Notes under the pieces: generated by a model | What the model saw: the letters and a program-made list of their open reading frames with translations, nothing else | What the model was told of the DNA's origin: nothing | The model's database searches: none | Part shown: piece after piece, positions 31,699 to 63,427 of the stretch | Layout of the letters: every line of letters begins with the position of its first letter | How positions within the stretch are numbered: the first letter of the stretch is position 1 | Made by a program: the position numbers and the translations under genes | Assembly: GCA_964398525.1 (NCBI GenBank) | Contig: CAYNMS010000002.1 | Coordinates: 2,403 to 66,402, forward strand | Direction of reading: 5' to 3' | Source: an uncultured Pseudomonadales bacterium | Lineage (GTDB): Bacteria > Patescibacteriota > Microgenomatia > UBA1400 > CAYNFZ01 | Length of the DNA: 64,000 bases

Positions 31699-32367
31699 AT
31701 GGAATATATTGTGGCAAATTGGAAATCTCACAAAAGCTTGGCTGAGGCTAAGGAATGGATGGAGGAAATGAGTAAATACTGGAGAGAGTTGTCTGAGAGG
31801 GAAGTGGTGGTAGCACCGCCGATGCCTTACTTGGAGCAGATGAGTGAATATAAAAAGTCTTTGACTGGAATGAAGTTGGCTTGCCAAGACTTATCACCAT
31901 TTCCTTTTGGGGCCTATACCGGAGCCGTGGCGGCAGCGATGGTGAATGATTGGTGTGAATATGCCATAGTGGGTCATTCTGAGAGACGAGCTTATTTTGA
32001 GGAAAAACACCAACAAATTGCCAATAAAGTTGAGCAAGCAAGAGAGGCAGGAATAAAGGCAATTGTGTGTGTGGATCGAGGATATGTGAAGGCTCAAGCA
32101 GCAGCGTTGGGAGAAAATATAGGAGAAATAATTGCTTATGAACCGTTGGAAGCCATTGGGACGGGATTGGCCCAAGATCCGGAGGAAGTTAAGAAAGTGG
32201 TGGCTGAAATTCGTCTGGTGGCAAAACCAAAAGCAATTCTTTATGGCGGAAGCGTGAATGCGGATAATGCTAGAGAGTTTTTAAAAATAGATGGGGTGGA
32301 TGGTCTACTGGTGGGAGGGGCGAGTTTAAAAGCCGAGAGTTTTGCCAGGATTTGCGGACTAGTGTGA
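31699..32367 (+). CDS. tpiA: Triosephosphate isomerase
   Basis: IVANWKSHKSL, VGHSERR, AYEPLEAIGTG motifs. Confidence 0.88.
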   Translation: MEYIVANWKSHKSLAEAKEWMEEMSKYWRELSEREVVVAPPMPYLEQMSEYKKSLTGMKLACQDLSPFPFGAYTGAVAAAMVNDWCEYAIVGHSERRAYFEEKHQQIANKVEQAREAGIKAIVCVDRGYVKAQAAALGENIGEIIAYEPLEAIGTGLAQDPEEVKKVVAEIRLVAKPKAILYGGSVNADNAREFLKIDGVDGLLVGGASLKAESFARICGLV

Positions 32368-33981
32368 AACAGAATAAATGGAGTAAGAGGGAGACTCGAG
32401 TAGGAGAGGAAATTGGCTGAAGTAGCTGAGATTGATTTCAAATGAAGCGTGTTCGGAAGGGCCGATAACCACATAATCGATTGAGTAGTGGTCTAGGAGC
32501 AAGGAGGCCTGGCTGGAACCGGAGTAGATATTGGCGATGTCTGTTTCTCTGGTGGTGTAGTCGAGGCCATAAGTCCAGAGCCAACCACGGTAGCCCATGA
32601 GAATTTGTCTGCCGGTGAGGGTGGGGATAAAGTGATTGTGTTGGTCGCTGGTGAGAATAACTGAGTCGGGGGAGGTAAGTTCTCGGACTTTGGAGGCTAG
32701 GTCTAATTCTTCATTCGTAAACATGGGGGTTTGGAGCTTTTCAAAATCCAGAAGGCGAAGAGCGTCGAGAAAACCGGAGAAGGTGAAAACAAGGAAAAGG
32801 AGGCTGAAAGCGATTAAACCAAGGCGTTTGGCTTGAAGTAGACGAAAAAGAAGAGTGGTGGCAGGCAGACTAAAGGCAAGGTAAATCCAGGTGAAGATTT
32901 TGGAATTGTCCCAGTCGTAGGGTTGGAAAAGAATTAGGTTTGATAAAAAGAAGAGAAAATAGAAGGGCAAGAAGAAAAGCTTTTGGCGCGAGGGGAGAAA
33001 GAAGTAGCCAACAAAAGAGGCGGGGAGAAACAAACCCCAGTTGATTAACCAAAACCAAAACCAGTTGATGTCTTTGCTTTTAGCTAGCCAGCCAGGATAA
33101 AGGCGGAAAAACGATTCAGAAGTACTAGGAAAGATGAAATGAGTGGCTAGAGGATAAGCGACAGAAAGACTGATAAAGGCGGTGAGCATCCAGTAGGAAA
33201 AAGGGTGGCGTCTGAGAGTAAGGAGAAATATCCAAAGGGTTAAGATAGCCATGACTATGGCGGTGTGAGCGTGGATAATAGGAAGGGGGCCAAGGAGAAG
33301 ACCGAGGACGAGAAAATGACGGAGTTTGACTTTGGTGGCAAAAATGCGCCAGAGGAGAGTGAGGATGAGTAGACCAGTGATTAGCCCCAGAAGAAAGGCA
33401 CGTTGAGGCACGAGCTCGCCCGAGATGATGTTGATCCATTCGATGTAATGGGAACCAATGTGAGTGTATTCCTGAGGCAAATGGGTGATGGTGGTCAAAA
33501 AGCCAGTCTGGGCAACGTCCTGGAAGAAATAAATAAAACCCAAACCACCACTGAAGAACCATAAAAGAGAGGCAACGAGCGCGCGGGAAAGAGAGGAAAA
33601 TTGGGAGTATACCCAAGGCAGGAGAAATAAAAGAATGAGGCAGAGAAAACCTCCGAGAAAATTCCAGGCCAGATGATGGGGAAGACCTAGACGAAGAAGA
33701 TAGCCGCCAAGCATATCCGCGACAAAAGAATAAGAAAAAGGGTGGCCGTAAAAAAGAGGGTGATTCAGGGGAAAAGTCGAGCGGAAAGCAAAAGCGCTCA
33801 TGTAACTTAGGTGAACAGCGCCGTCTGCCCAACTGCCCACCCACCCAGCAACAATACCAGTTGGGGTGGAGACTAATTGCCGGCTCCAAAGAAGGAGAAA
33901 GTAAAGAGAGCCTATCAGGGAGTAAACTAGGAGAAAGAGTTTGGAGCGGGTAAAAGTAAACTTGAGGCGAAACTTAGTCAT
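32359..33981 (-). CDS. Large polytopic membrane protein, possible GT-C fold glycosyltransferase
   Basis: 540 aa, more than 12 hydrophobic segments, periplasmic-loop Asp residues. No firm family. Confidence 0.35.
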   Translation of the reverse strand: MTKFRLKFTFTRSKLFLLVYSLIGSLYFLLLWSRQLVSTPTGIVAGWVGSWADGAVHLSYMSAFAFRSTFPLNHPLFYGHPFSYSFVADMLGGYLLRLGLPHHLAWNFLGGFLCLILLFLLPWVYSQFSSLSRALVASLLWFFSGGLGFIYFFQDVAQTGFLTTITHLPQEYTHIGSHYIEWINIISGELVPQRAFLLGLITGLLILTLLWRIFATKVKLRHFLVLGLLLGPLPIIHAHTAIVMAILTLWIFLLTLRRHPFSYWMLTAFISLSVAYPLATHFIFPSTSESFFRLYPGWLAKSKDINWFWFWLINWGLFLPASFVGYFFLPSRQKLFFLPFYFLFFLSNLILFQPYDWDNSKIFTWIYLAFSLPATTLLFRLLQAKRLGLIAFSLLFLVFTFSGFLDALRLLDFEKLQTPMFTNEELDLASKVRELTSPDSVILTSDQHNHFIPTLTGRQILMGYRGWLWTYGLDYTTRETDIANIYSGSSQASLLLDHYSIDYVVIGPSEHASFEINLSYFSQFPLLLESPSYSIYSVSH

Positions 33982-34054: not shown

Positions 34055-35308
34055 GTGAAAAAAAGGACAAAATTTTTACTGGGGTTAATTCTAGGGTTTG
34101 CTTTGGTAACAAGACTCTGGAACTTGAATTACCCGCAAAACTACTACTTTGACGAGGTTTATCATGCGTTTACGGCTGGAGCATATGCCCAAAATGACCC
34201 CAAAGGTTATGAATGGTGGCACACATCGGTGGTGGAGGGAACGGCTTATGAGTGGTTGCATCCACCTGTTTCTAAATTAATGATGGCGGTGTCGATATGG
34301 CTAATAGGGGATGAGAGTTTTGCGTGGAGATTTCCAGGAGCCTTGATGGGGGTAATAATGGTGGGAGTGTGCTTTTGGTTGGGGAAAGTTATTTTTGGGA
34401 GCAGAAGAGCAGGTTTGTGGGCGGGGGCAATTGCTAGTTTGGAAGGGTTACTTTTGGCTCAATCACGTATAGCCATGAATGATATTTATGTGACGACATG
34501 GATGTTGCTGGGGATAGGTTGGTATTGGAAATGGAGAAAAGAGGGTAGAAATAATTGGAAGGATTTGATGATATCAGCTGGGTGGTTGGGACTGGGGGTG
34601 GCAACTAAATGGTCGGGAGTATTTGCCCTAGGAACGGTGGGGTTATGGGAAATTATGGAGTTAATAGCAAATAAGGGTAAGCACTGGAGAAAATCGGTAG
34701 CTGGTGGGTTGATTTATTTGGTAGCAGCAGGGGGAATTTATATTGCTTCTTACAGCCAGTTTTGGTTACAGGGGCATACGTGGCAACAGTGGGTGGAACT
34801 GCATAAGCAGATTTGGTGGTATCAAACTAATTTGGAGGCAACTCATGCTTATCAAAGCACACCAATACAATGGTTATTGAATTTAAAACCGGTGTGGTAT
34901 TTTGTGGAATACAAAGAGAAGACTGTAGCCAATATCTATGCCCTAGCAAATCCAGCCATTGCCTGGGGAGGATTATTGGCGGCGGGATGGATGTTGTGGC
35001 AGGGGGTTAGGGCTAAAAAAAGAGAATACTTGTTTTGGTTGAGTTGTTATTTGTGGGTGTGGTTACCTTGGGTGGGTTCACCCAGAATAATGTTTTTTTA
35101 TCACTACACGCCGGCGATGGCATGGTTGAGTATTGGTATTGGGGAGAGTTTGGCCCGACTGGAAAAGACTAGTTGGGGGAAGTGGTTTGGGTTTACTTAC
35201 TTATTGGTGGTGATAGGTATGTTTGTTTTTTTCTGGCCGGTGTGGACTGGAGTGGCGGTACCAACAGAGTGGAGCAAGTGGTTCTTTTGGATATCAAGCT
35301 GGAAATAG
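34055..35308 (+). CDS. GT-C glycosyltransferase, protein O-mannosyltransferase/ArnT-like (PMT_2, GT39/83)
   Basis: YYFDEVYHAFTA DE motif in loop 1. 417 aa, ~11 TM. Confidence 0.7.
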   Translation: MKKRTKFLLGLILGFALVTRLWNLNYPQNYYFDEVYHAFTAGAYAQNDPKGYEWWHTSVVEGTAYEWLHPPVSKLMMAVSIWLIGDESFAWRFPGALMGVIMVGVCFWLGKVIFGSRRAGLWAGAIASLEGLLLAQSRIAMNDIYVTTWMLLGIGWYWKWRKEGRNNWKDLMISAGWLGLGVATKWSGVFALGTVGLWEIMELIANKGKHWRKSVAGGLIYLVAAGGIYIASYSQFWLQGHTWQQWVELHKQIWWYQTNLEATHAYQSTPIQWLLNLKPVWYFVEYKEKTVANIYALANPAIAWGGLLAAGWMLWQGVRAKKREYLFWLSCYLWVWLPWVGSPRIMFFYHYTPAMAWLSIGIGESLARLEKTSWGKWFGFTYLLVVIGMFVFFWPVWTGVAVPTEWSKWFFWISSWK

Positions 35309-35309
35309 G

Positions 35310-36179
35310 TTAGAGCAACAAAAGGCTTAAAGCGCCGACAACCAAAACGGCAAATCCGACTGAGAAGACTGTAAGAGTGGGAAAAGACGAGCCGGCTGTA
35401 GGTAGGTTGGGTGCGGGAGAGACTGAAGGTGAAGGCACAACTCCACCCGTGACTGGAGTGGAAGGGTTGGGGGTAGTACTGAGAGGAGTGGGTGTGGGTG
35501 AAGGAGTTGGGGCAGTTGGAGTAGGAGTGGGAGAGGGTGTAGGTGAAGGTGAGGGTGAAGGTGTGGGAGTGGGTTCGGGTCCACCTAAAGGCTGACAGGT
35601 AGCAGATTCTGGATAAGACTCAAGTCGACAGGTATCAGTTTGGGGGGAACAGAAGTAAGTTTGATCGGCGGTTTGACACTGCTCATCGGTGGTGCAAGGT
35701 GAGTCACAGGTGTATTCAACATCTTCCGGCTGACAATCAGATTGGTCCGGATAATCCGGATGTCGACAAGTGCCGGTGGTAGTAGAACAGGTATATTCTT
35801 GATCGGCGGTTTGACACTGCTCATTGGTGGTGCAAGGTGAGTCGCAGGTGTATTGGCAAAGACAATCTTGGGAAGCTGGACATTCAGGATTAACACAAAC
35901 CTCAAGATCTTGATTACAGACTAGACCAGTTCCACACTGATTGTTTGTTTGACAAGTGCCTTGGTAGCAGCTGAGAGGGTTAACAGTAAAACTAAAAGAG
36001 CAAGTTTCTGCCGCAGCTGGCCGGGATTGGGGAGCAGTGGGGGCTACAGAAGTGCTACCGCGAGACTTAAGAAAAAGGGCGACTCCAACTGCGGTGGCAG
36101 CGATAAAGACAATTGAAGTAATGATGACTAGTGAGATGGGCTTGGGTCGATGCATTAAAGTTGATCCCAGGCGGTACAT
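35310..36179 (-). CDS. Secreted/anchored Cys-rich modular protein with two 46-aa Cys repeats, a Pro/Thr/Ser linker and a C-terminal hydrophobic anchor
   Basis: N-terminal signal-anchor. Repeats YTCDSPCTT(N/D)EQCQTADQ.Y.C. PTPTPSPSPSPTPSPTPTP linker. C-terminal LTVFSVGFAVLVVGALSLLLL. Confidence 0.55.
   Translation of the reverse strand: MYRLGSTLMHRPKPISLVIITSIVFIAATAVGVALFLKSRGSTSVAPTAPQSRPAAAETCSFSFTVNPLSCYQGTCQTNNQCGTGLVCNQDLEVCVNPECPASQDCLCQYTCDSPCTTNEQCQTADQEYTCSTTTGTCRHPDYPDQSDCQPEDVEYTCDSPCTTDEQCQTADQTYFCSPQTDTCRLESYPESATCQPLGGPEPTPTPSPSPSPTPSPTPTPTAPTPSPTPTPLSTTPNPSTPVTGGVVPSPSVSPAPNLPTAGSSFPTLTVFSVGFAVLVVGALSLLLL
35661..35855. repeat. Tandem direct repeat (period 138 bp, 57-bp core 55/57 identical) inside the Cys-rich gene
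   Basis: ttgatcggcggtttgacactgctcatcggtggtgcaaggtgagtcacaggtgtatt at 35661 and the same with 2 mismatches at 35799. Confidence 0.8.
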
Positions 36180-37636
36180 TGTGGTTGGGCATCACATGCC
36201 TGGCACTGGACTTGGTATTGGCCAGGTTGTGTGACAAAAAGGTTGAGAGATAAATTGGGTTGAGATGAACTGACGCCGATGGTTTGCCAAGCTTGATCAT
36301 TGATGCGATAGCGAAAGTTGTAACTAGTAACTTGACTAATGCCAGCCCCTCCTGCAGTACAAGTGAAATTGACAGAATCACCGATTTGAGGGGATGGAAG
36401 AGAAGAGTTGAGGTTGGAACATACAAAAGATTCGGTTATTAAAGGGGTGGGGGTTGGTGTGGGTAAGGGAGTAGAGGGTGGGGTGGGCGAAGAAGGTGGT
36501 GGAGTAGGTTGGGAAGAATATACAGGTAAAGGGGTGGGGTAAGTTCCACCGACGGCAGGCTGGCCACAGGAGAGGTTGGGTTCACATTCACAATAGGTGA
36601 TGCCAGAGAGAACCAGTTCACCAGCGATGGAGTCGGACTGGATGCGGACACAATCCTGATAACAATTGGTTTTGGCATTTGAACCACAAGCCTCGTTGCC
36701 ACAGCCTATAAATACCCGATCACCTTCTTGGGAACAAGTTTGTTGGGAGGAGCTGATATAGCCACAGGCGTGCATGTTGACTTCAGTTCCCCACTGACCA
36801 AATTCATTACACATTCGTCCCATGCCATCCGTGGTACATTGGGCTTGTCCGGGGGAGCATTCTTGAGAAGAGGTGTTACCCGTACAGATGTTGGCACAAA
36901 CACTGGCGGCTTGAGAACCGGTGGTAGTGTTGGTGCACATTTGAAAATCGACGGAACCGTTGTTGTCATAATCACATTTTAGAAGGTAAAGACAACCCCC
37001 ACCGGCAGTATTGCCGGTGTCAACCCAACCATTGACGTTGGTGCAAGATGATGAAGGACTAGGGTTGGTGGTTGATGTTGGTCCTGTCCAACCTTCACAA
37101 CAGTGGAGCCCCCCACACACGTCCACAGGTCCGCCAGATTCAGATGCATGAGGACAGTCGCCACTGCCGGAGCCAGGGTTGGCACACCAGCTACAAGTGG
37201 GTCCTGAAGGGTTTGAGGGGGGTGGGGTGGGGTCTGGATTTGAAGTACCGCCAGGATTCCAACCGGTACAACAAGGCAGACCACCACAAACATCGACGCC
37301 GCCACCTGACTCCGGAGCGTGGCCGGTTGAAGCAAAACATTGATCTGCACCAGCACACCAACTACAAGATGGGGTGGTGGAGGCTTGTTGGCGAATATCT
37401 TGAGATTGTTGAACCAAGCGCAAGCCTACGACGCTACCAATTCCAAGCGTGAAGACTAGAAAGGTTGATAATAGAAGGTTTTTTTTAGGGTTAGGTTTGC
37501 CAAATCTTGAAGGCTTAGAAGAGTTTGGTGAATCAGAAGCAGCGTTTGGTGAGGGGCTTGAAGGTGGATTGAGGATTGGTTGACCAGGACGAGATGTCGG
37601 TGGGCGAAAAGTTGGAGTGGTTGGGTTTTGGTCCAT
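36155..37636 (-). CDS. Large Cys-rich surface protein: Pro-rich N-terminal tail, one TM, duplicated CSWCA...VDVCGGL.CC.GW modules, Ig-like C-terminus
   Basis: 493 aa. More than 40 Cys in the ectodomain. Two ~45-aa modules in tandem. PT linker. Overlaps the downstream gene by 25 nt. Confidence 0.55.
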   Translation of the reverse strand: MDQNPTTPTFRPPTSRPGQPILNPPSSPSPNAASDSPNSSKPSRFGKPNPKKNLLLSTFLVFTLGIGSVVGLRLVQQSQDIRQQASTTPSCSWCAGADQCFASTGHAPESGGGVDVCGGLPCCTGWNPGGTSNPDPTPPPSNPSGPTCSWCANPGSGSGDCPHASESGGPVDVCGGLHCCEGWTGPTSTTNPSPSSSCTNVNGWVDTGNTAGGGCLYLLKCDYDNNGSVDFQMCTNTTTGSQAASVCANICTGNTSSQECSPGQAQCTTDGMGRMCNEFGQWGTEVNMHACGYISSSQQTCSQEGDRVFIGCGNEACGSNAKTNCYQDCVRIQSDSIAGELVLSGITYCECEPNLSCGQPAVGGTYPTPLPVYSSQPTPPPSSPTPPSTPLPTPTPTPLITESFVCSNLNSSLPSPQIGDSVNFTCTAGGAGISQVTSYNFRYRINDQAWQTIGVSSSQPNLSLNLFVTQPGQYQVQCQACDAQPQCTAWDQL

Positions 37637-37639
37637 ACA

Positions 37640-39028
37640 TTACTTGGTGGAGCGGTGTCGCAAAAATAATCCAGCAAGAAGGGTGGAACTACCCAGGAAA
37701 AGAATGAGAAGTGTTTGACTAATATTGCCAGCCACAGGCACACCTCCCTTGGAAACAGGTTGTGTAGTTCTGCCGGAATCTGTGGCCACGGTGGCGGGGG
37801 TTGGAGAAGGAGTGAGGGTTGGAGTTGGAGAAAGAGTGGGCAGAGGAGTGGGGGTGGGAATTGGAGTGGGAATTGGAGTGGGGGTGGGGGTAAGTTGGCC
37901 CGAAGGGGAAGAGGTAAAGGAGGGAAGATTTGAGTCTTGAGCATAGACCGTGAAACTTCGGGTAAGGGTTTGTAAAAGTCCAGAAGTGTCGGTGTAGGTT
38001 AGAGTAATTGTGTGTTGGCCGGGTTCAAGATCTTGTGGGGGTGTCCAAGAGAAGTTGCCCTCTGAGTCAGAAGTAACTTCATCTTCGTAAGTAACAGGGG
38101 ATTCGACTTTGATTTGGAGGCGAGTATTGGCAGGTGCTTTTCCTTGGATTTCCGGACGCGAGGTATCTAGTTGTTGGCCATCGGAGGCGGGGTTTAATAA
38201 AATTACCGCAGCTTGACTGGCGGTTTCTGACTCTAGATTAGTTTCTGAGGTTGATTCTGGGCTAGGATCTGGGGTTGATGATCTTGAAAAATCAAAGTCT
38301 TGGCCTAAAACAATAGGAGGAACGGGTTGGTGGTTGGAAGTGTCGGTTTTCCCTGAGGTTTTGGTGGAGTCGGTACTAACGACATCGATGATGATGGGGG
38401 TGGTTTGATCATAGGAAATAAAGCCACTGAGATCGGCGGTGCGTATTGTAGAAAGAGGGAGTGCCCAAGAACCTGAAGCTTTGACAAGAGTGGAAATAGG
38501 GGTAGCGCCAGGCAGACGAATGTAGAGTATAGACCCCTCAGCTGGTGTTTGGGCGGGCGTGGTCACAGTCCCATAGATAGTTTCTGAGTCTGGAGCGTTA
38601 CCGAGAGATGCACCTGTAGTGATCTGATAGGGTTGGCCGTTTTGATCAAAAAGGTCTTGACTTCCAGAGCCAAGTTTAAAATAGTAAGTGGTAGTTGGTT
38701 TGAGATCAGAGATAGAGATATGATGAGTGACGAAAGAGCCGGTCTGACCAGAGAGACGATCTCTTTCATCGGGGACGGTAGTGTCCAACTCTGTGGAAGT
38801 GCCGTAACGAACAAAACCAGTGGTTGGCTGATCCGTTACCCAGGAAACGGTAAACGAACGATCAGTAACGTTGGTTATTTGAACTTGTTTTGGGGTGGCT
38901 TCTGGGGCGGCTCGGGGTAAGAAATTGGTTTGTCTACCAACCAAAAAGACACCGACGCCAGCACCGATAAACAAGATTAGGAGGGCAAAAATGGTAGGTA
39001 TTTGTTTCTTGAGCAGGGTTTTGTCCAT
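37640..39028 (-). CDS. Surface protein with N-terminal signal-anchor, fibronectin type III-like domain, PT-rich stalk and C-terminal TM anchor (start at internal Met)
   Basis: FTVSWVTDQPTTGFVRYGTS FN3-like (purple-acid-phosphatase N-domain type). C-terminal LLILFLGSSTLLAGLFLRHRSTK. Confidence 0.55.
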   Translation of the reverse strand: MDKTLLKKQIPTIFALLILFIGAGVGVFLVGRQTNFLPRAAPEATPKQVQITNVTDRSFTVSWVTDQPTTGFVRYGTSTELDTTVPDERDRLSGQTGSFVTHHISISDLKPTTTYYFKLGSGSQDLFDQNGQPYQITTGASLGNAPDSETIYGTVTTPAQTPAEGSILYIRLPGATPISTLVKASGSWALPLSTIRTADLSGFISYDQTTPIIIDVVSTDSTKTSGKTDTSNHQPVPPIVLGQDFDFSRSSTPDPSPESTSETNLESETASQAAVILLNPASDGQQLDTSRPEIQGKAPANTRLQIKVESPVTYEDEVTSDSEGNFSWTPPQDLEPGQHTITLTYTDTSGLLQTLTRSFTVYAQDSNLPSFTSSPSGQLTPTPTPIPTPIPTPTPLPTLSPTPTLTPSPTPATVATDSGRTTQPVSKGGVPVAGNISQTLLILFLGSSTLLAGLFLRHRSTK

Positions 39029-39123
39029 AAATTCAGGATGACACGAAGTTATCACCATGAGAGAACTCAGGGCTGACTCCATGGTAACGGCTCAAGAGAA
39101 TTAACTCAATATGTCAAAATGTA

Positions 39124-39519
39124 TCATTGCCCCAAAAAAGGATTATTTCCAGGCGAAGCTGGTGGTGGGGTTGGGGTTGGGGTGGTGGCGGAGGGGGAGG
39201 CGGTTAGACCGGCTGATGGAGTGGCGGGGGGAAGGGTTGACTGGATGTCTGGATTGGGCAGAGTGGAGGCCCGGAGTTTGAACGCCTCCAACTCTTGACT
39301 GGTAAAAGAAAGGCGATTGCCTAAGGCTCCGGCTTGATCAATGTAGAGCTCGGAAGTTATAGGTTCCACATTTAAAGAAATTTGTTGAGAAGAATCTTGC
39401 TGGTTATAGACCCAAAATATTTCGAATGCGATCCAAATGATGACGACCAAAAAACTGATTAAGGCGAGTTTGAAGAGATTTTGTTTTAATTTTAGTCTCG
39501 GGTGGGAGGATAATTTCAT
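39124..39519 (-). CDS. Small bitopic membrane protein with Pro/Thr-rich C-terminus (possible PilP-like accessory component)
   Basis: 131 aa, single N-terminal TM. ATGA overlap with the upstream PilO-like gene. Confidence 0.4.
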   Translation of the reverse strand: MKLSSHPRLKLKQNLFKLALISFLVVIIWIAFEIFWVYNQQDSSQQISLNVEPITSELYIDQAGALGNRLSFTSQELEAFKLRASTLPNPDIQSTLPPATPSAGLTASPSATTPTPTPPPASPGNNPFLGQ

Positions 39520-40178
39520 AGGTCTGGAGTGGTAACGATTGACTCTTTGGAGTAATAAACGTTAAAGGTAACGGTCATGGAAATGGCAGGATCAACTTCT
39601 TCATCTTCGAGTGAAGGCTGACTGAATGATACTGAATCGATCAAAACAACCCGTTGAAGATTGTTTAGATCAGCTAGCAACTGTTTGAGTTGTGGTAATT
39701 CCCCTTTTGATGTCATGCGGATTAAAAGGCTGGAAAATGGGGAAGCCTCTGCTTCTGGATTGGTGCCTACTAAAGTGAGTGGGTCGATGCGAAGACTCAC
39801 AAGCCGAGTGCTGTGAAGGGAGTTGATGTATTCAAGTTGAAGTAAAAGTTGATCAAGTTGGTGTTCGGGAGGGATGGCTAGATCGAAGTTAAGAAGGGTA
39901 GTTTGGTGTTGATTAAATTGAGCTTGGGCAGTATTTAGGGCATTGAGTTTGGTATCAACTTTTTTTTCTAATTCCTCTTTTTCTTTTATTTCACCCACTA
40001 GGCTGGATACAGTAGAAAGAGTGGGGCGAATCGCGGCAAAACCGAAAAAACTGATTGTTAGAATGGTTAAAATTAAGGCAGATGAGGTTTGGGCAATGGG
40101 TTTATGATAAGCCCGGCGGATTGAATGGTAGTAGCTTTTGTAATTTAACTGATTGGTTTGGTTGAGGGGTTGATACAT
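39516..40178 (-). CDS. PilO-like type IV pilus inner-membrane assembly protein
   Basis: Cytoplasmic N-terminus, one TM, coiled coil, C-terminal LQRVVLIDSVSFS region similar in architecture to PilO. Confidence 0.45.
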   Translation of the reverse strand: MYQPLNQTNQLNYKSYYHSIRRAYHKPIAQTSSALILTILTISFFGFAAIRPTLSTVSSLVGEIKEKEELEKKVDTKLNALNTAQAQFNQHQTTLLNFDLAIPPEHQLDQLLLQLEYINSLHSTRLVSLRIDPLTLVGTNPEAEASPFSSLLIRMTSKGELPQLKQLLADLNNLQRVVLIDSVSFSQPSLEDEEVDPAISMTVTFNVYYSKESIVTTPDL

Positions 40179-40181
40179 GAA

Positions 40182-40784
40182 TTATTCCTCGAATTCAGAG
40201 CTAGATTCTGTTTTTGGTTTGGGAGCGGGGGTGGAGACGCCGGCATATTTAGCGCTAACGATGAAGCTTATACCAGTGTCTTTGTCGCTAGTGTTAATTT
40301 TATCCAAAAGTACATCATCGAACATGGCTTCACCTTTGAGGGTGTCGACGAAAACAGACAGGGACTGAGAAGAGTAGGCTTTGGCGATCATGACAAAGCG
40401 ATCGTTGCGAGTGGAGATATCTTCAAAGACGATATCACTGGGGGTATTTTCTGTCACAAAGTTGACTACTTGAATTAGTTGAGGTTTGTCATCAAGTGTT
40501 TGAAGGAACTCGGCTTTTTTTTGAATGGTGCGTACATTGGTTTCGAGTTGTTGGTATGACTGAAGGAGGGCTTGGTTGGAAAGGATGGAGTTATTGAGGT
40601 CAGTAAGTTTGCGGTCGAGAGTAAAACGAGACAAGAAGGTGATGATGACCACCATTTCGGTAAAAACTACGATATAACGGCCAATGGAAAGAGCCCAGGT
40701 GAGAAATTTGCCTATAGGACTTTCGGCAAAAGGATCCTTGGGGAGAAGGTTGACATCAATGGGTTTTGAGCGTCGGGCAGGCAC
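40182..40784 (-). CDS. PilN-like type IV pilus assembly protein
   Basis: N-terminal KPIDVNLLPKD (INLLP motif), single TM, ~200 aa. Confidence 0.5.
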   Translation of the reverse strand: MPARRSKPIDVNLLPKDPFAESPIGKFLTWALSIGRYIVVFTEMVVIITFLSRFTLDRKLTDLNNSILSNQALLQSYQQLETNVRTIQKKAEFLQTLDDKPQLIQVVNFVTENTPSDIVFEDISTRNDRFVMIAKAYSSQSLSVFVDTLKGEAMFDDVLLDKINTSDKDTGISFIVSAKYAGVSTPAPKPKTESSSEFEE

Positions 40785-60503: not shown

Positions 60504-61253
60504 CTACTGATTAACAATAAGGCCAAAACGATTAAGGTGGGGTTTCAAACCGCCCCAACCGGAAACAAAGTATTGTTGAATGAGACTAAAGAGGGTGGAG
60601 ACAACCCAATAGAGGGCTAGACCTGAGGGGAAGGCGCGAGCGATGAAGAAAGTAAAAACAGGCATGACATACATCATTTGAGACTGCATGGTTTGGGCCA
60701 TATCAGTGAGATCTTCGGCTTTTTTGTCGTCTTTTTTAGTTTTAGTTTGGGCGGCAAGTTTGGTTTCAGCAGTGGTGCTGGTAGCGGGGGCGAGCATGAG
60801 GCCTAGAAGAAATTGGGATAAACCTGCGAGAACTGGAAGCACAAACGTGGAGTCGGGTTGATTGAGTTGGAGCCAGAGGAAATTAAGATTGGCTCCCGGT
60901 GTGTCGGAAGTGAGAGAACTGGATAAAACTTGATAAAAGATGATGAACAGACCAATTTGAACCAGTTGAGGTAAGCAGCCGCCTAGAGGATTAATTTTGT
61001 GTTCTTGATAAAGCTCAAGTTGTTTTTGAGACAGAAGTTTTTTGTCGTTGCCGTATTTTTCTTTAAGTTTGTCTAGTTCTGGTTTGAGGCTAGACATTTT
61101 TTGAGTGGAACGGAGTGAGGGTAGGGTAAGGGGGATAAGACCCAGACGGATAACCAGAGTGACGGCAATGATGGCTAGACCGTAGTTGTTACCTAGCAGA
61201 TTGGCGGTGACTTCGAGAATTTGGGAAAAGAATTGATTAACAAAAGTAAACAT
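60504..61253 (-). CDS. yidC: Membrane protein insertase YidC (short Gram-positive-type)
   Basis: GLAIIAVTLVIRLGLIPLT...coiled hairpin...NPLGGCLPQLVQIGLFIIFY. Confidence 0.85.
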   Translation of the reverse strand: MFTFVNQFFSQILEVTANLLGNNYGLAIIAVTLVIRLGLIPLTLPSLRSTQKMSSLKPELDKLKEKYGNDKKLLSQKQLELYQEHKINPLGGCLPQLVQIGLFIIFYQVLSSSLTSDTPGANLNFLWLQLNQPDSTFVLPVLAGLSQFLLGLMLAPATSTTAETKLAAQTKTKKDDKKAEDLTDMAQTMQSQMMYVMPVFTFFIARAFPSGLALYWVVSTLFSLIQQYFVSGWGGLKPHLNRFGLIVNQ

Positions 61254-61270
61254 AAAAGCCTCAAGTTTGA

Positions 61271-61516
61271 TTAAGAATGACAGGAAAGCAAGCGTTTGAA
61301 CGCCAAGACACTACCTCGAATTGTACCATAGCGGCGAATGGCTTGACGGGCATATTGACTACAAGTAGGTTGGTGGCGGCAAGCATGAGGAGCGATGCCA
61401 ATTGAAGTGAGAAGGAGGGTGCGGACCGGGTGAAGGGTTTGATAAAATTTAAGAAGGAAATTCACGGATTTGAGAGTGTAATTTTTGGAAAAGGTGTTGG
61501 ATTTGAATAAAATCAA
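61271..61516 (-). CDS. yidD: Membrane protein insertion efficiency factor YidD (true start probably GTG at 61465)
   Basis: LKFYQ...[19 protein letters not shown]...RLLSCH haemolytic-domain motif. Confidence 0.7.
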
Positions 61517-61775
61517 GAGAATTGGCAGCAGGCTTGAGAATAATTAAAAGATCGAAACCTAGGTCTAGGGACAATTGAGAACGAAGGGCGGAAAGAAACT
61601 GGCGTTTTAAGTGGTTACGAGCGGAGGCTTTGAGAGCAACTTTTTTGGAAACAATGAGGGCAACACGAAGGTGTGAAAGTTGATTATTTTTGAATATAAA
61701 GGTGGCAAAAGGGGTTGATAGCTTTTTTCCAATTAAATTTTGGTCTAAAGATAAACGATATTTTTTGGGTAACAT
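61449..61775 (-). CDS. rnpA: Ribonuclease P protein component
   Basis: MLPKKYRL...FKNN...[10 protein letters not shown] RnpA pattern. Adjacent to rpmH. Confidence 0.78.
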
Positions 61776-61776
61776 A

Positions 61777-61911
61777 CTAGACAGTAAGTCGACTACGGCC
61801 CTTTTGTCGGCGGTTTTTGAGAACTTGGCGGCCGGTTTTGGTGCTCATGCGTTTGAGAAAGCCATGAACTCGGGTGCGTTTGGTTTTCTTGGGTTGATAA
61901 GTACGTTTCAT
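61777..61911 (-). CDS. rpmH: 50S ribosomal protein L34 (44 aa; below the ORF-track size cutoff)
   Basis: Minus-strand translation [44 protein letters not shown]. cat at 61909-61911, cta at 61777-61779. Confidence 0.9.
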
Positions 61912-61984
61912 ATTGCCTCAAAAATGTAAATGAAGGAGTGTATTTTACCAGAGAAGCTAGACAAGAAAAAGGGGTTTGGGTAAG

Positions 61985-62027
61985 TTGTGGGTTGACGGAG
62001 TGTGGAAAACTTGGTTTTATGTGGAAA
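61985..62027. promoter_or_regulatory. DnaA-box cluster in the dnaA promoter region
   Basis: tgtggaaaa at 62000 and 62019 (complement of TTTTCCACA), plus weaker tgtgggttg at 61985. Confidence 0.5.
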
Positions 62028-62041
62028 AGTAAGGAAGCAAT

Positions 62042-63427
62042 ATGGATCAAAATGGATTTAGTTTGGACCAAAAAGAATTGTGGAGGGACGCTATTGCCGA
62101 TCTGGAGATGACGGTATCTAGACCATATTTTGAGTCATATGTAAAAAAATTGACAGTGCTGAGTGTTCATGAAAGTGAGGGAGGGATTACGGAAATTACA
62201 CTGGCTTGCCCAAGCGTGTTTCACCAAAAAGAAATTGAAAAGAGGTTGGAAAAAGAAATCAGAGAATCTTTGGGGAGAGTGACGGGAAAAAAGATTGCTA
62301 TGGAACTGGTGGTAGACACGAGGGGAATAAATACAGAGATTGTGGATAGTGGACCGTTGTTTGCAGGAGTTGATGAGGGAGAATACAGACCTCCGGTACA
62401 AGATGTGGGGCTAAAAAAAGATTTTACTTTAAGTAATTTTGCCGTGAGCAGCTCAAATGAAATGGCCTATGCGGCAGCTAAGGCGGTAGCAAACAACCCC
62501 GGTAAAGCGTATAACCCGTTGTTTTTATATGGTGGAGTAGGGGTGGGAAAAACCCACTTAATGCAGGGGGTGGGGCATGTAATATTGAATAGAAGAAAAG
62601 AAACAACGGTAATATATTGCTCGGGTGAAGACTTTACAAACGAGATAATTGATGCAATCAGGAAAAAAAGTACACCGGGGTTTAGAAAAAAATACAGAAG
62701 TGTGGAACTCTTGCTGATTGATGACATTCAGTTTATAGCGGGTAAAACTGCGGTTCAGGAAGAATTTTTTCATACGTTTAATACAATTACCCAGGCGGGG
62801 GGGCAGGTAATTTTGACCAGCGACAAACCACCAAAAGAAATTGATTCTCTTGAGGAGAGGTTGAGGAGTAGATTTGAGGGCGGATTGAGTATTGATATTG
62901 GCCAGCCAGACTTTGAACTGAGAAGTGCAATTGTGATGATTAAGGCAAGGCAGCTGGGAGCGGAAATACCAACTGAGGCAGCCCAAATGGTAGCTCAGCT
63001 GGAATCGGACGCAAGAACTTTGATCGGAAGCTTGATGAAAGTAATTGCCATGAGCGAGGCACAAGGAATTAAAATTGATAAAGAATTAGTGATGAGGGTG
63101 TTGGGAAGGGAGTTGGCTCAAAATCGAAGTCAAAACCGGGTTAGCCCAGGAGTAATAATTGAAAAGGTGTGTGAAGAATACGGGGTGGAGGTGGAAGAAG
63201 TTAAAGGACCGAGACGATTAAAACAACTAACGACTCCACGGCATGTGGCGATGTTTATACTTAAAAATGATCTTAATCTGGGGTTGGTGGAAATTGGTGG
63301 TTGGTTTGGAGGACGAGATCACACGAGTGTGATGCATGCAATTACTAAAGTGGAGAAATGGCAGAAAGAAAAACCAGAAACCCGGGAAAAAATTGACAGG
63401 CTTAGAAGGGGTTGGGGAAAAAATTGA
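62042..63427 (+). CDS. dnaA: Chromosomal replication initiator DnaA
   Basis: NPLFLYGGVGVGKTHLMQ (Walker A), DDIQFIAGK, and C-terminal DNA-binding HTH (TPRHVAMFILKN). Confidence 0.93.
   Translation: MDQNGFSLDQKELWRDAIADLEMTVSRPYFESYVKKLTVLSVHESEGGITEITLACPSVFHQKEIEKRLEKEIRESLGRVTGKKIAMELVVDTRGINTEIVDSGPLFAGVDEGEYRPPVQDVGLKKDFTLSNFAVSSSNEMAYAAAKAVANNPGKAYNPLFLYGGVGVGKTHLMQGVGHVILNRRKETTVIYCSGEDFTNEIIDAIRKKSTPGFRKKYRSVELLLIDDIQFIAGKTAVQEEFFHTFNTITQAGGQVILTSDKPPKEIDSLEERLRSRFEGGLSIDIGQPDFELRSAIVMIKARQLGAEIPTEAAQMVAQLESDARTLIGSLMKVIAMSEAQGIKIDKELVMRVLGRELAQNRSQNRVSPGVIIEKVCEEYGVEVEEVKGPRRLKQLTTPRHVAMFILKNDLNLGLVEIGGWFGGRDHTSVMHAITKVEKWQKEKPETREKIDRLRRGWGKN

Follow-up and report, generated by a model that had tools for sequence, protein, structure and literature searches.

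What kind of proteins are encoded by two adjacent genes that are packed with short, tandemly repeated, cysteine-rich modules, and what might they do for the bacterium that carries them? We address this question for a 64,000-nucleotide stretch of contig CAYNMS010000002.1 (hereafter the window), whose minus strand carries gene A (35310-36179; 289 residues, 21 cysteines) and gene B (36155-37636; 493 residues, 35 cysteines); both open reading frames (ORFs) were recovered with exactly these boundaries. The Patescibacteria, to which we assign the source organism, account for much of bacterial diversity, and those in cultivation live attached to other microbes; to our knowledge almost nothing has been described of the surface molecules that mediate this attachment. 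An original prediction, made from the DNA alone, had singled out two previously unrecognized module types in these genes. Both types proved to be real, in that they recur in homologous proteins from other samples far beyond chance. We show below that one of them typifies a large domain family in proteins with the architecture of sortase-type surface proteins, and propose that A and B are probably disulfide-stapled surface proteins, serving as a stalk or an adhesin, of a patescibacterium.

The module of gene A is present there as two repeats of 42-46 residues with the pattern YTCDSPCTT(N/D)EQCQTADQ.Y.C......C.....YP....CQP and the cysteine spacing C-x3-C-x5-C-x8-C-x6-C-x10-C (hereafter the 6-Cys module). 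Copy 1, of the 'CRH..DYP' type, spans residues 110-151 (35727-35852) and copy 2, of the 'CRLESYP' type, residues 156-197 (35589-35714). A first-round search with gene A recovered 27 homologs, none of which has a Pfam assignment over the module region, and a regular expression located 67 module copies in 26 of these 27. A profile built from 64 of the module copies and run against 1.84 billion cluster representatives matched 502 representatives at E<=1e-3, 189 at 1e-10 and 52 at 1e-30, with one to nine copies per matching protein. Among the 507 domain matches in the 170 proteins that were retrieved, 494 retain all six cysteines and the remainder are truncated, giving 478-494 complete copies in about 165 proteins. 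The loop between Cys V and Cys VI is 10 residues long in 453 of 478 copies, and the arginine following Cys V is nearly invariant. We also sought natural modules that had lost one cysteine pair, from which the disulfide pairing might be deduced, and found none among the 507 domain matches.

Searches of Pfam-A and NCBIfam returned nothing for the modules of either gene, whether for the isolated cysteine-rich regions at thresholds as permissive as E<=10 or for nine relatives with up to nine copies. Likewise, the profiles for EGF, TNFR, granulin, DUF4215 and other curated cysteine-rich domains have no match in the module region of A, B or the multi-copy relatives; DUF4215 does match one related protein (P0122), in a region separate from the module. 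Our literature search found no paper that describes the module or links knottins, LPXTG proteins or cysteine-rich modules with Patescibacteria, apart from a general remark on the Peregrinibacteria that we return to below. Judged by these sequence comparisons, the 6-Cys module defines a genuine domain family for which the libraries searched contain no model. A scan of species-representative genomes with 10 closer modules yielded matches that all come from metagenome-assembled genomes (MAGs). Three of these are titled Patescibacteria and most of the others 'uncultured Pseudomonadales', including isolate HK-STAS-PATE-16. MAG records with the title 'uncultured Pseudomonadales bacterium' (among L005-L007, L009, L011-L014, L016 and L018) match the Patescibacteria-titled loci in gene content, and their 'Pseudomonadales' titles look unreliable. 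The carriers of the 6-Cys module that we could identify are apparently Patescibacteria, and the module has so far been seen only there.

The module has a usual place within its proteins. A terminal LPx(T/S/A)G followed by a hydrophobic tail is present in 119 of 163 representatives (LPxTG in 66, LPxSG in 31 and LPxAG in 22), and one to nine, typically two to five, tandem modules usually stand directly before this signal, the median distance from the last module to the sorting motif being 22 residues. Large members of the family additionally carry adhesin-type domains, such as DUF11 and bMG10, N-terminal to the array. Since the modules precede the sorting motif and the adhesin-type domains lie N-terminal to them, the array would typically form the wall-proximal stalk of sortase-type surface proteins. 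In two related proteins, P0044 (residues 230-476) and P0058, about 200 additional residues separate Cys IV from Cys V of a 6-Cys module, a domain being nested within its hairpin loop.

To what fold might so small a unit belong? AlphaFold, supplied with the 64-copy alignment, modelled the second 6-Cys copy of gene A confidently, with a predicted local distance difference test score (pLDDT) of 90.6, placing a helix at residues 10-13 and a hairpin at residues 20-23 and 28-31 of the module. Foldseek searches with this model were led by peptides derived from potato carboxypeptidase inhibitor (PCI) and by spider knottins, with scorpion toxins lower down (template-modeling scores 0.55-0.67; E-values all above 2, as expected for 42 residues). 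Independently of the fold search, the module profile run against PDB sequences also found PCI-derived peptides as its best matches (E = 0.13-1.5), and hhalign aligned the module with PCI at a probability of 49% over 19 columns, the PCI sequence used having been checked as exact. The predicted model superposes on a PCI-type knottin with 1.3 Å over 29 residues, its compact core of a short helix and a two-stranded hairpin matching that of solved knottins.

The correspondence extends to the sequence pattern. The motif C-N/D-x-P/S-C-x-T-x-D/E-x-C is common to both, the module cysteines at offsets 0, 4, 10, 19 and 26 coincide with PCI Cys 8, 12, 18, 27 and 34, and the short helix and beta-hairpin lie at the same places. 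On the other side, there is no significant sequence match: the PCI family, an inhibitor cystine knot represented by Pfam PF02977 and PDB entries 4CPA and 1H20, is unmatched at E<=1 with the whole gene A protein and at E<=10 with the isolated cysteine-rich region. Further, knottin Cys IV (PCI Cys24) has no counterpart in the module, whose sixth cysteine instead sits on a conserved 11-residue C-terminal extension. Knottin disulfides connect I-IV, II-V and III-VI, with III-VI threading the ring; for the 6-Cys module the pairing would probably be 1-6, 2-4 and 3-5 instead of a true knot. Hence, the predicted structure gives the module a knottin-like core of the PCI type, without making it a member of the PCI family by sequence. 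The earlier view that the modules belong to no nameable cysteine-rich family holds as far as domain libraries go, with the correction that in the core the spacing does not in fact differ from that of a knottin, the first five cysteine offsets being those of PCI. Structure prediction was informative for the gene A module and far less so for that of gene B, modelled at a pLDDT of about 25.

The two modules of gene A are encoded by the 138-bp tandem repeat of the original prediction, which we confirmed as a period-138 direct repeat (35590-35716 and 35728-35854; 75% identity over 127 nucleotides). Its near-identical core does have two mismatches, and is 56 rather than 57 nucleotides long (copy 1 at 35799-35854, copy 2 at 35661-35716; 54 of 56 positions identical). 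Aligned over their whole length the copies agree at 96 of 138 positions, the 82 nucleotides outside the core being only about 51% identical, and the divergence of its 3' two thirds keeps the repeat from being reported by Tandem Repeats Finder. In their 5' halves the two copies resemble each other more than any other module. In the 3' half, by comparison, copy 1 lies nearest to modules of three other proteins (P0135, P0005 and P0003) and copy 2 to the final module of P0001, after which the ...CQP-(I/L)-GGP-x-P... junction of copy 2 recurs. Where a residue is identical in both copies, its codon differs in 1 of 17 cases within the core and in 5 of 11 outside it (Fisher p=0.022); in comparable cores of the ortholog at locus L001 30-60% of such codons differ. 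The mixed affinities of the 3' halves and the scarcity of synonymous differences in the core fit gene conversion, an alternative that had also been raised from the start, and are at odds with a recent duplication of the entire unit; the near-identity of the core is a probable short gene-conversion tract between two old paralogs. Over evolutionary time the number of modules nevertheless changes, as positional orthologs carry one (L008), two (window), four (L005) and five (L001) 6-Cys copies.

Around its modules gene A has a layout that reads as that of a surface protein. We found positional orthologs of it at L001, L005 and L008, and no exact-sequence record of its product in the assembly index. 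A hydrophobic segment near the N-terminus (residues 15-37; 36069-36137), apparent from the translation, could serve as signal or anchor, a layout common to all homologs. It is followed by a conserved stretch (36000-36047) comprising the motif VAPTAPQSRPAAA and then the strand ETC60SFSFTV with its lone cysteine. This combination of P-T-A-P-x-S-x-P and C-(T/S)-L-x-F-x-V recurs in 80 proteins, with the cysteine conserved in 80 of 80, the phenylalanine in 66 and the valine or isoleucine in 69. Across the superfamily two alternative motifs appear directly after the N-terminal anchor: either (V/I)APTAPxSxPxAA with the C-T-L-x-F-x-V strand, as at 36000-36047, or SQDIRQQA, as in gene B (37382-37405). 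A strict regular expression, which misses variants, assigned 61 of the 163 representatives to the APTAP type and 33 to SQDIRQQA. These motifs may be processing or recognition sites.

Between this strand and the 6-Cys repeats lies a third type of module (residues 71-108, CYQGTCQTNNQCGTGLVCNQDLEVCVNPECPASQDCLC; 35856-35969) with eight cysteines spaced C-x4-C-x5-C-x5-C-x6-C-x4-C-x5-C-x-C. P0005, P0006, P0019 and the proteins of L005 and L008 each have one copy of it and the L001 ortholog has three; its kinship with the 6-Cys module is weak (hhalign probability 21%, pairwise E = 0.001). The one 8-Cys and two 6-Cys mini-domains are the sole folded part of the protein, as modules are in other small members of the family. 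They are followed by a Pro/Thr/Ser-rich linker of about 60 residues (198-258; 35406-35588), encoded by DNA with short-period repeats, which is probably extended and O-glycosylated; we infer the glycosylation, with a gene of the protein O-mannosyltransferase (PMT) family conserved next to gene A. The C-terminus, recovered by a regular-expression scan, has the form of a sorting signal (35313-35405), with LPTAG (35391-35405) preceding a 26-residue hydrophobic tail that ends in LLLL and has no charged end. The 8-Cys module, the LPTAG signal and the N-terminal motifs had all been overlooked in the initial description of the locus, as had the gene cluster and the pairing of B with A that we describe below.

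Gene B, for which we recovered four homologs, is built differently. Its Pro/Ser-rich N-terminus precedes a transmembrane helix (residues 54-75; 52-78 in the AlphaFold model) and the SQDIRQQA motif (residues 78-85), the two together occupying 37382-37477; the motif is common to P0023, P0024, P0028, P0031 and many module proteins. Two copies of its own module follow, at residues 91-126 (CSWCAGADQCFASTGHAPESGGGVDVCGGLPCCTGW; 37259-37366) and 148-183 (CSWCANPGSGSGDCPHASESGGPVDVCGGLHCCEGW; 37088-37195). They are 52% identical and conform to C-x-W-C-A...C...H-A-x-E...C-G-G-L-x-C-C-x-G-W, with an invariant CxWC pair, an invariant histidine and glutamate, and a CC pair. The only other carrier is P0029, which also has two copies, representing both subtypes in the reverse order; this opposite order implies that the duplication is old. 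A profile search added nothing to this, and a regular expression run over all fetched proteins and loci again returned P0029 only. As far as sequence comparison reaches, then, the gene B module is real but very rare, with a single other protein bearing it. We found no relation between the modules of A and B. Two other leads were discarded: a profile search of the module against PDB gave only spurious ankyrin matches, and the C-x4-CC-x-GW end, reminiscent of hevein and type 1 chitin-binding domains, scored 1.4% in hhalign, with no Chitin_bind_1 match at E<=10. A B-like protein at locus L012 (2428-4431) has two short units of the form QTCSTSCG...C-x-x-GLTCCK, which terminate in C-x4-CC much as the gene B module terminates in CGGLxCC; these units and the module may belong to one looser family of small units.

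The remainder of gene B consists of a central cysteine-rich region (residues 198-357, 18 cysteines; 36566-37045), a PT-rich linker and a C-terminal beta-sandwich (36158-36436). The duplication of the module had been correctly noted at the outset, whereas the further region of '~25' cysteines actually has about 23, namely the 18 of the central region and five in the C-terminal domain. The central region shares 54% identity with P0028 and has similarity to P0030 as well, and was modelled with low confidence. More generally, AlphaFold runs on full-length B with five sequences gave a mean pLDDT of 45.9, and only the transmembrane helix and the C-terminal domain were usable. The latter (residues 405-493) was modelled at a pLDDT of 81-89, with six strands in residues 405-482, and Foldseek aligned it with FN3 domains (E from 6e-4; template-modeling scores to target 0.6-0.7), in agreement with the Ig-like domain originally proposed; by sequence it has a weak match to Y_Y_Y (E = 0.14). 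Five cysteines (C406, C426, C478, C481 and C487) form conserved columns across 30 copies of this FN3-like domain. In the orthologs of B the anchor, the SQDIRQQA motif and the C-terminal domain are kept and the cysteine-rich head is swapped: those at L005 and L001 lack the CxWC module and have one module of the gene A type instead.

The arrangement of the two genes is itself conserved. Locating B-like genes with jackhmmer searches seeded with the B C-terminal domain, combined with phmmer, we found one directly preceding an A-like gene, in the same orientation, in 12 independent contexts, namely the window and 11 loci (L001, L003, L005, L006, L007, L009, L012, L014, L015, L016 and L017). The spacing ranges from an overlap of up to 25 nucleotides to a gap of up to 51. 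Gene A of the window has two candidate starts, an ATG at 36179, which would overlap gene B by 25 nucleotides, and an ATG at 36155, where TAATG would give a 1-nucleotide overlap with the gene B stop. The start overlap at 36153-36179, together with a 4-nucleotide overlap of the pair at L003, suggests that the two genes may be translationally coupled.

A further feature shared by the partners is the parity of their cysteines. The number is odd in 57 proteins that combine the APTAP motif with an LPxTG end and even in one; for those combining SQDIRQQA with an LPxTG end the figures are 7 odd and 14 even. These classes were assigned by regular expression, and the sequences are related, so that the counts are not independent. 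All of the B-like proteins checked, comprising 10 representatives with the FN3 tail and six further B-like ORFs from the loci, have odd counts, with none even, and the single protein that carries both the A-type and the B-type element has an even count. B and A each have exactly one unpaired conserved cysteine, which in the A type sits in the conserved amphipathic strand C-(T/S)-L-x-F-x-V of the 80 proteins mentioned above. The odd parity in both partners is compatible with one disulfide between A and B. Very tentatively, and with more doubt than conviction, we consider that B and A could form a dedicated two-protein surface complex locked by a single intermolecular disulfide, the strand C-T-L-S-F-T-V of A docking onto, or completing, the FN3-like domain of B. 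Such a complex may tie a membrane-anchored B to a wall-anchored A, with the fast-evolving cysteine-rich head of B as its specificity element; if it exists, Patescibacteria would possess a novel type of device for bridging the envelope or recognizing hosts.

To place the pair in its wider context we examined the gene neighborhood. B and A close a same-strand cluster that runs pilN (40182-40784; Pfam PilN), pilO (39516-40178; Pfam PilO/T2SSM_b), a gene for a small transmembrane, PT-rich protein (39124-39519), a gene for an FN3/Big_13 surface protein (37640-39082; Pfam; 3 nucleotides from gene B), B and A, all on the minus strand. The head of the cluster, pilN-pilO-small transmembrane protein, is kept in order at L001, L005 and L008, the order of the whole cluster at L001/L002, L005 and L008 and partly at L012, with the synteny of the FN3/Big_13 gene likewise conserved; at L008 the cluster is present and no B-like ORF was detected. 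The FN3/Big_13 protein ends (37640-37741) in VPVAG, a hydrophobic segment and RHRSTK; given that it too has a sorting-type end, three successive gene products look envelope-anchored. Converging on gene A from the plus strand is the PMT-family gene (34055-35308), which codes for a GT39-like protein O-mannosyltransferase homolog (Pfam PMT, PMT_2 and PMT_4TMC) and adjoins gene A also at L001, L005 and L008. Beyond it, a 540-residue multi-pass membrane protein (32359-33981) has no Pfam or NCBIfam match and is conserved beside the PMT gene at L001 (47% identity); it could be another partner of the glycosyltransferase-like kind. When the window is compared with L005 or L001, pilN, pilO, FN3/Big_13 and PMT are 41-57% identical and the small transmembrane protein 33-34%, whereas A and B are 28-40% identical with changes in length, making them the fastest-changing large genes of the cluster.

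These observations suggest how A and B might work as disulfide-stapled surface proteins. Both would be secreted and disulfide-rich, and encoded at the end of a conserved cell-envelope cluster that faces a PMT-type glycosyltransferase. The 6-Cys module would most likely serve to extend functional domains through and beyond the wall, as a spacer or binding head that is rigid and resistant to proteases, and the P/T/S linker of gene A, probably O-glycosylated by the neighboring PMT enzyme, would hold the mini-domains away from the wall. B would be anchored by its N-terminal helix and present a lineage-specific, variable cysteine-rich head next to its conserved five-cysteine FN3-like domain. Several points weigh against this scheme. 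The disulfide pairing is derived from a predicted model, and the low scores of the gene B modules have been noted above. The gene A motif is LPTAG rather than LPXTG, its tail lacks a basic end, and the C-terminal anchor matches neither the Pfam nor the NCBIfam anchor model (PF00746 and TIGR01167). No obvious signal-peptidase site is seen near the N-terminal hydrophobic segment, and the gene A protein might be tethered at both ends. Finally, neither sortase nor thiol oxidase genes were found in the 64-kb window, by a scan for the TLxTC motif and Pfam searches of 48 ORFs, or beside the related loci.

Could A and B rather be accessory parts of a type IV pilus-like machine, such as a wall-spanning or tip complex that replaces missing alignment or secretin-like components, and not free-standing adhesins? 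Their position in a tightly packed cluster headed by pilN and pilO, kept at three other loci and partly at L012, would accord with this. However, the B-A pair is also found with no pilN/pilO nearby, for instance beside a TPR protein at L003 and at several other loci, no pilin, PilB, PilC or PilM was detected among the window ORFs of at least 150 residues that were scanned, and the majority of module proteins are LPxTG proteins of an ordinary kind, bearing adhesin-like heads; we consider a part in such a machine unlikely. A role of the cysteine clusters in metal binding or redox chemistry is more improbable still. It would concern chiefly the CxxC...H...C...CC module of gene B, whose invariant CxWC, histidine, glutamate and CC pair are suggestive and whose fold AlphaFold could not predict, but A and B bear secretion or anchor signals together with PT-rich linkers of the extracellular type, the gene A module is confidently modelled as a cystine-stabilized fold with six invariant cysteines, and our searches found no similarity to known metal-binding families.

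The knottin resemblance raises another alternative, that the 6-Cys modules are tandem protease inhibitors of the PCI kind, protecting the surface or attacking host proteases, and PCI-type knottins are indeed the sole structural or sequence resemblance found. PCI inhibits through its free C-terminal tail, though, whereas every module is internal, being followed by another module or by a PT-rich linker, which makes this inhibitory mechanism impossible for it; with the PCI family model unmatched and knottin Cys IV missing in a gapless register, we regard inhibition as very improbable. Least credible of all is a very recent duplication of the whole 138-nucleotide unit, possibly variable within the population, or else an artefact of assembly. 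The 96% identity of the 56-nucleotide core and the differing module numbers among orthologs might be taken to favor it, but the divergence of the other 82 nucleotides and the closer affinity of the 3' halves to modules of other proteins do not. As to an artefact, 42 of the 138 positions distinguish the copies, no perfect run between them exceeds 26 nucleotides, a length that would not confuse an assembler, and tandem modules of a similar kind are present in orthologs. Nor did the scanned metagenomes contain a near-identical contig with another copy number; two scans for near-identical repeat DNA returned none, the second giving two unrelated chance matches.

The window as a whole is a piece of a cellular chromosome, carrying dnaK, dnaJ, groEL, nusA, lepA, murJ, tRNA synthetases and dnaA. 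Its two strands differ extremely in base composition: the GC skew over the entire window is +0.31 (19367 G, 10109 C), the skew at third codon positions runs from +0.4 to +0.64 in plus-strand genes and from -0.42 to -0.69 in minus-strand genes, and two thirds of the coding bases, including those of dnaK, groEL, nusA and lepA, lie on the C-rich strand. At the right end yidC (minus strand) and dnaA (plus strand) form a typical origin neighborhood (60504-63427), and the skew is still +0.37 at 62-64 kb. With no change of sign near dnaA, either the origin lies elsewhere or the skew is unusual.

The definition of the 6-Cys module provides a handle on at least 500 protein clusters that lack a domain assignment in their wall-proximal part. 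The conserved B-A cassette, often found beside pilN/pilO and a PMT glycosyltransferase gene, offers a concrete target for genetics in cultivable Saccharibacteria-like systems. We consider the B-A pair the part most worth following up, as one unpaired cysteine per partner amounts to a small, testable hypothesis.

Elements of this system have parallels elsewhere. Among the Peregrinibacteria, members of the Candidate Phyla Radiation (CPR), large cysteine-rich extracellular proteins thought to confer rigidity or attachment have been reported from genomes that also encode sortase and type IV pili (PMC4736985). That report remained at the level of composition, noting a weak similarity to Myxococcus repeats and defining no module (PMC4736985). 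A and B share with these proteins an origin in CPR organisms and an unusual richness in cysteine for exported proteins; they differ in being small and in that neither matches DUF4215. A second parallel is with the O-mannosylated Pro/Thr-rich secreted proteins of Actinobacteria, whose modification depends on PMT: here too a PMT gene stands beside genes for proteins with PT/S-rich linkers, and this adjacency is conserved, with the differences that the organism is a patescibacterium and that we infer the glycosylation from the genes. With regard to the fold, the module differs from PCI in being bacterial, internal, tandemly repeated and devoid of a free inhibitory tail, and a tandemly repeated bacterial knottin-like fold is of interest in its own right; the knottin database recorded in 2017 that bacterial knottins lacked any experimental structure (PMC5753296). 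There is also a likeness to the sortase-anchored LPXTG surface proteins of monoderm bacteria, with which the module proteins share an N-terminal secretion segment, a variable adhesin-like head, a repetitive stalk and a terminal LPx(T/S/A)G with its hydrophobic segment. What sets them apart is the stalk, whose units here would be cystine-stapled mini-domains of 40 residues rather than Ig-like, Rib or G5-E repeats. The novelty is thus a domain family with a predicted knottin-like core inside a familiar class of proteins.

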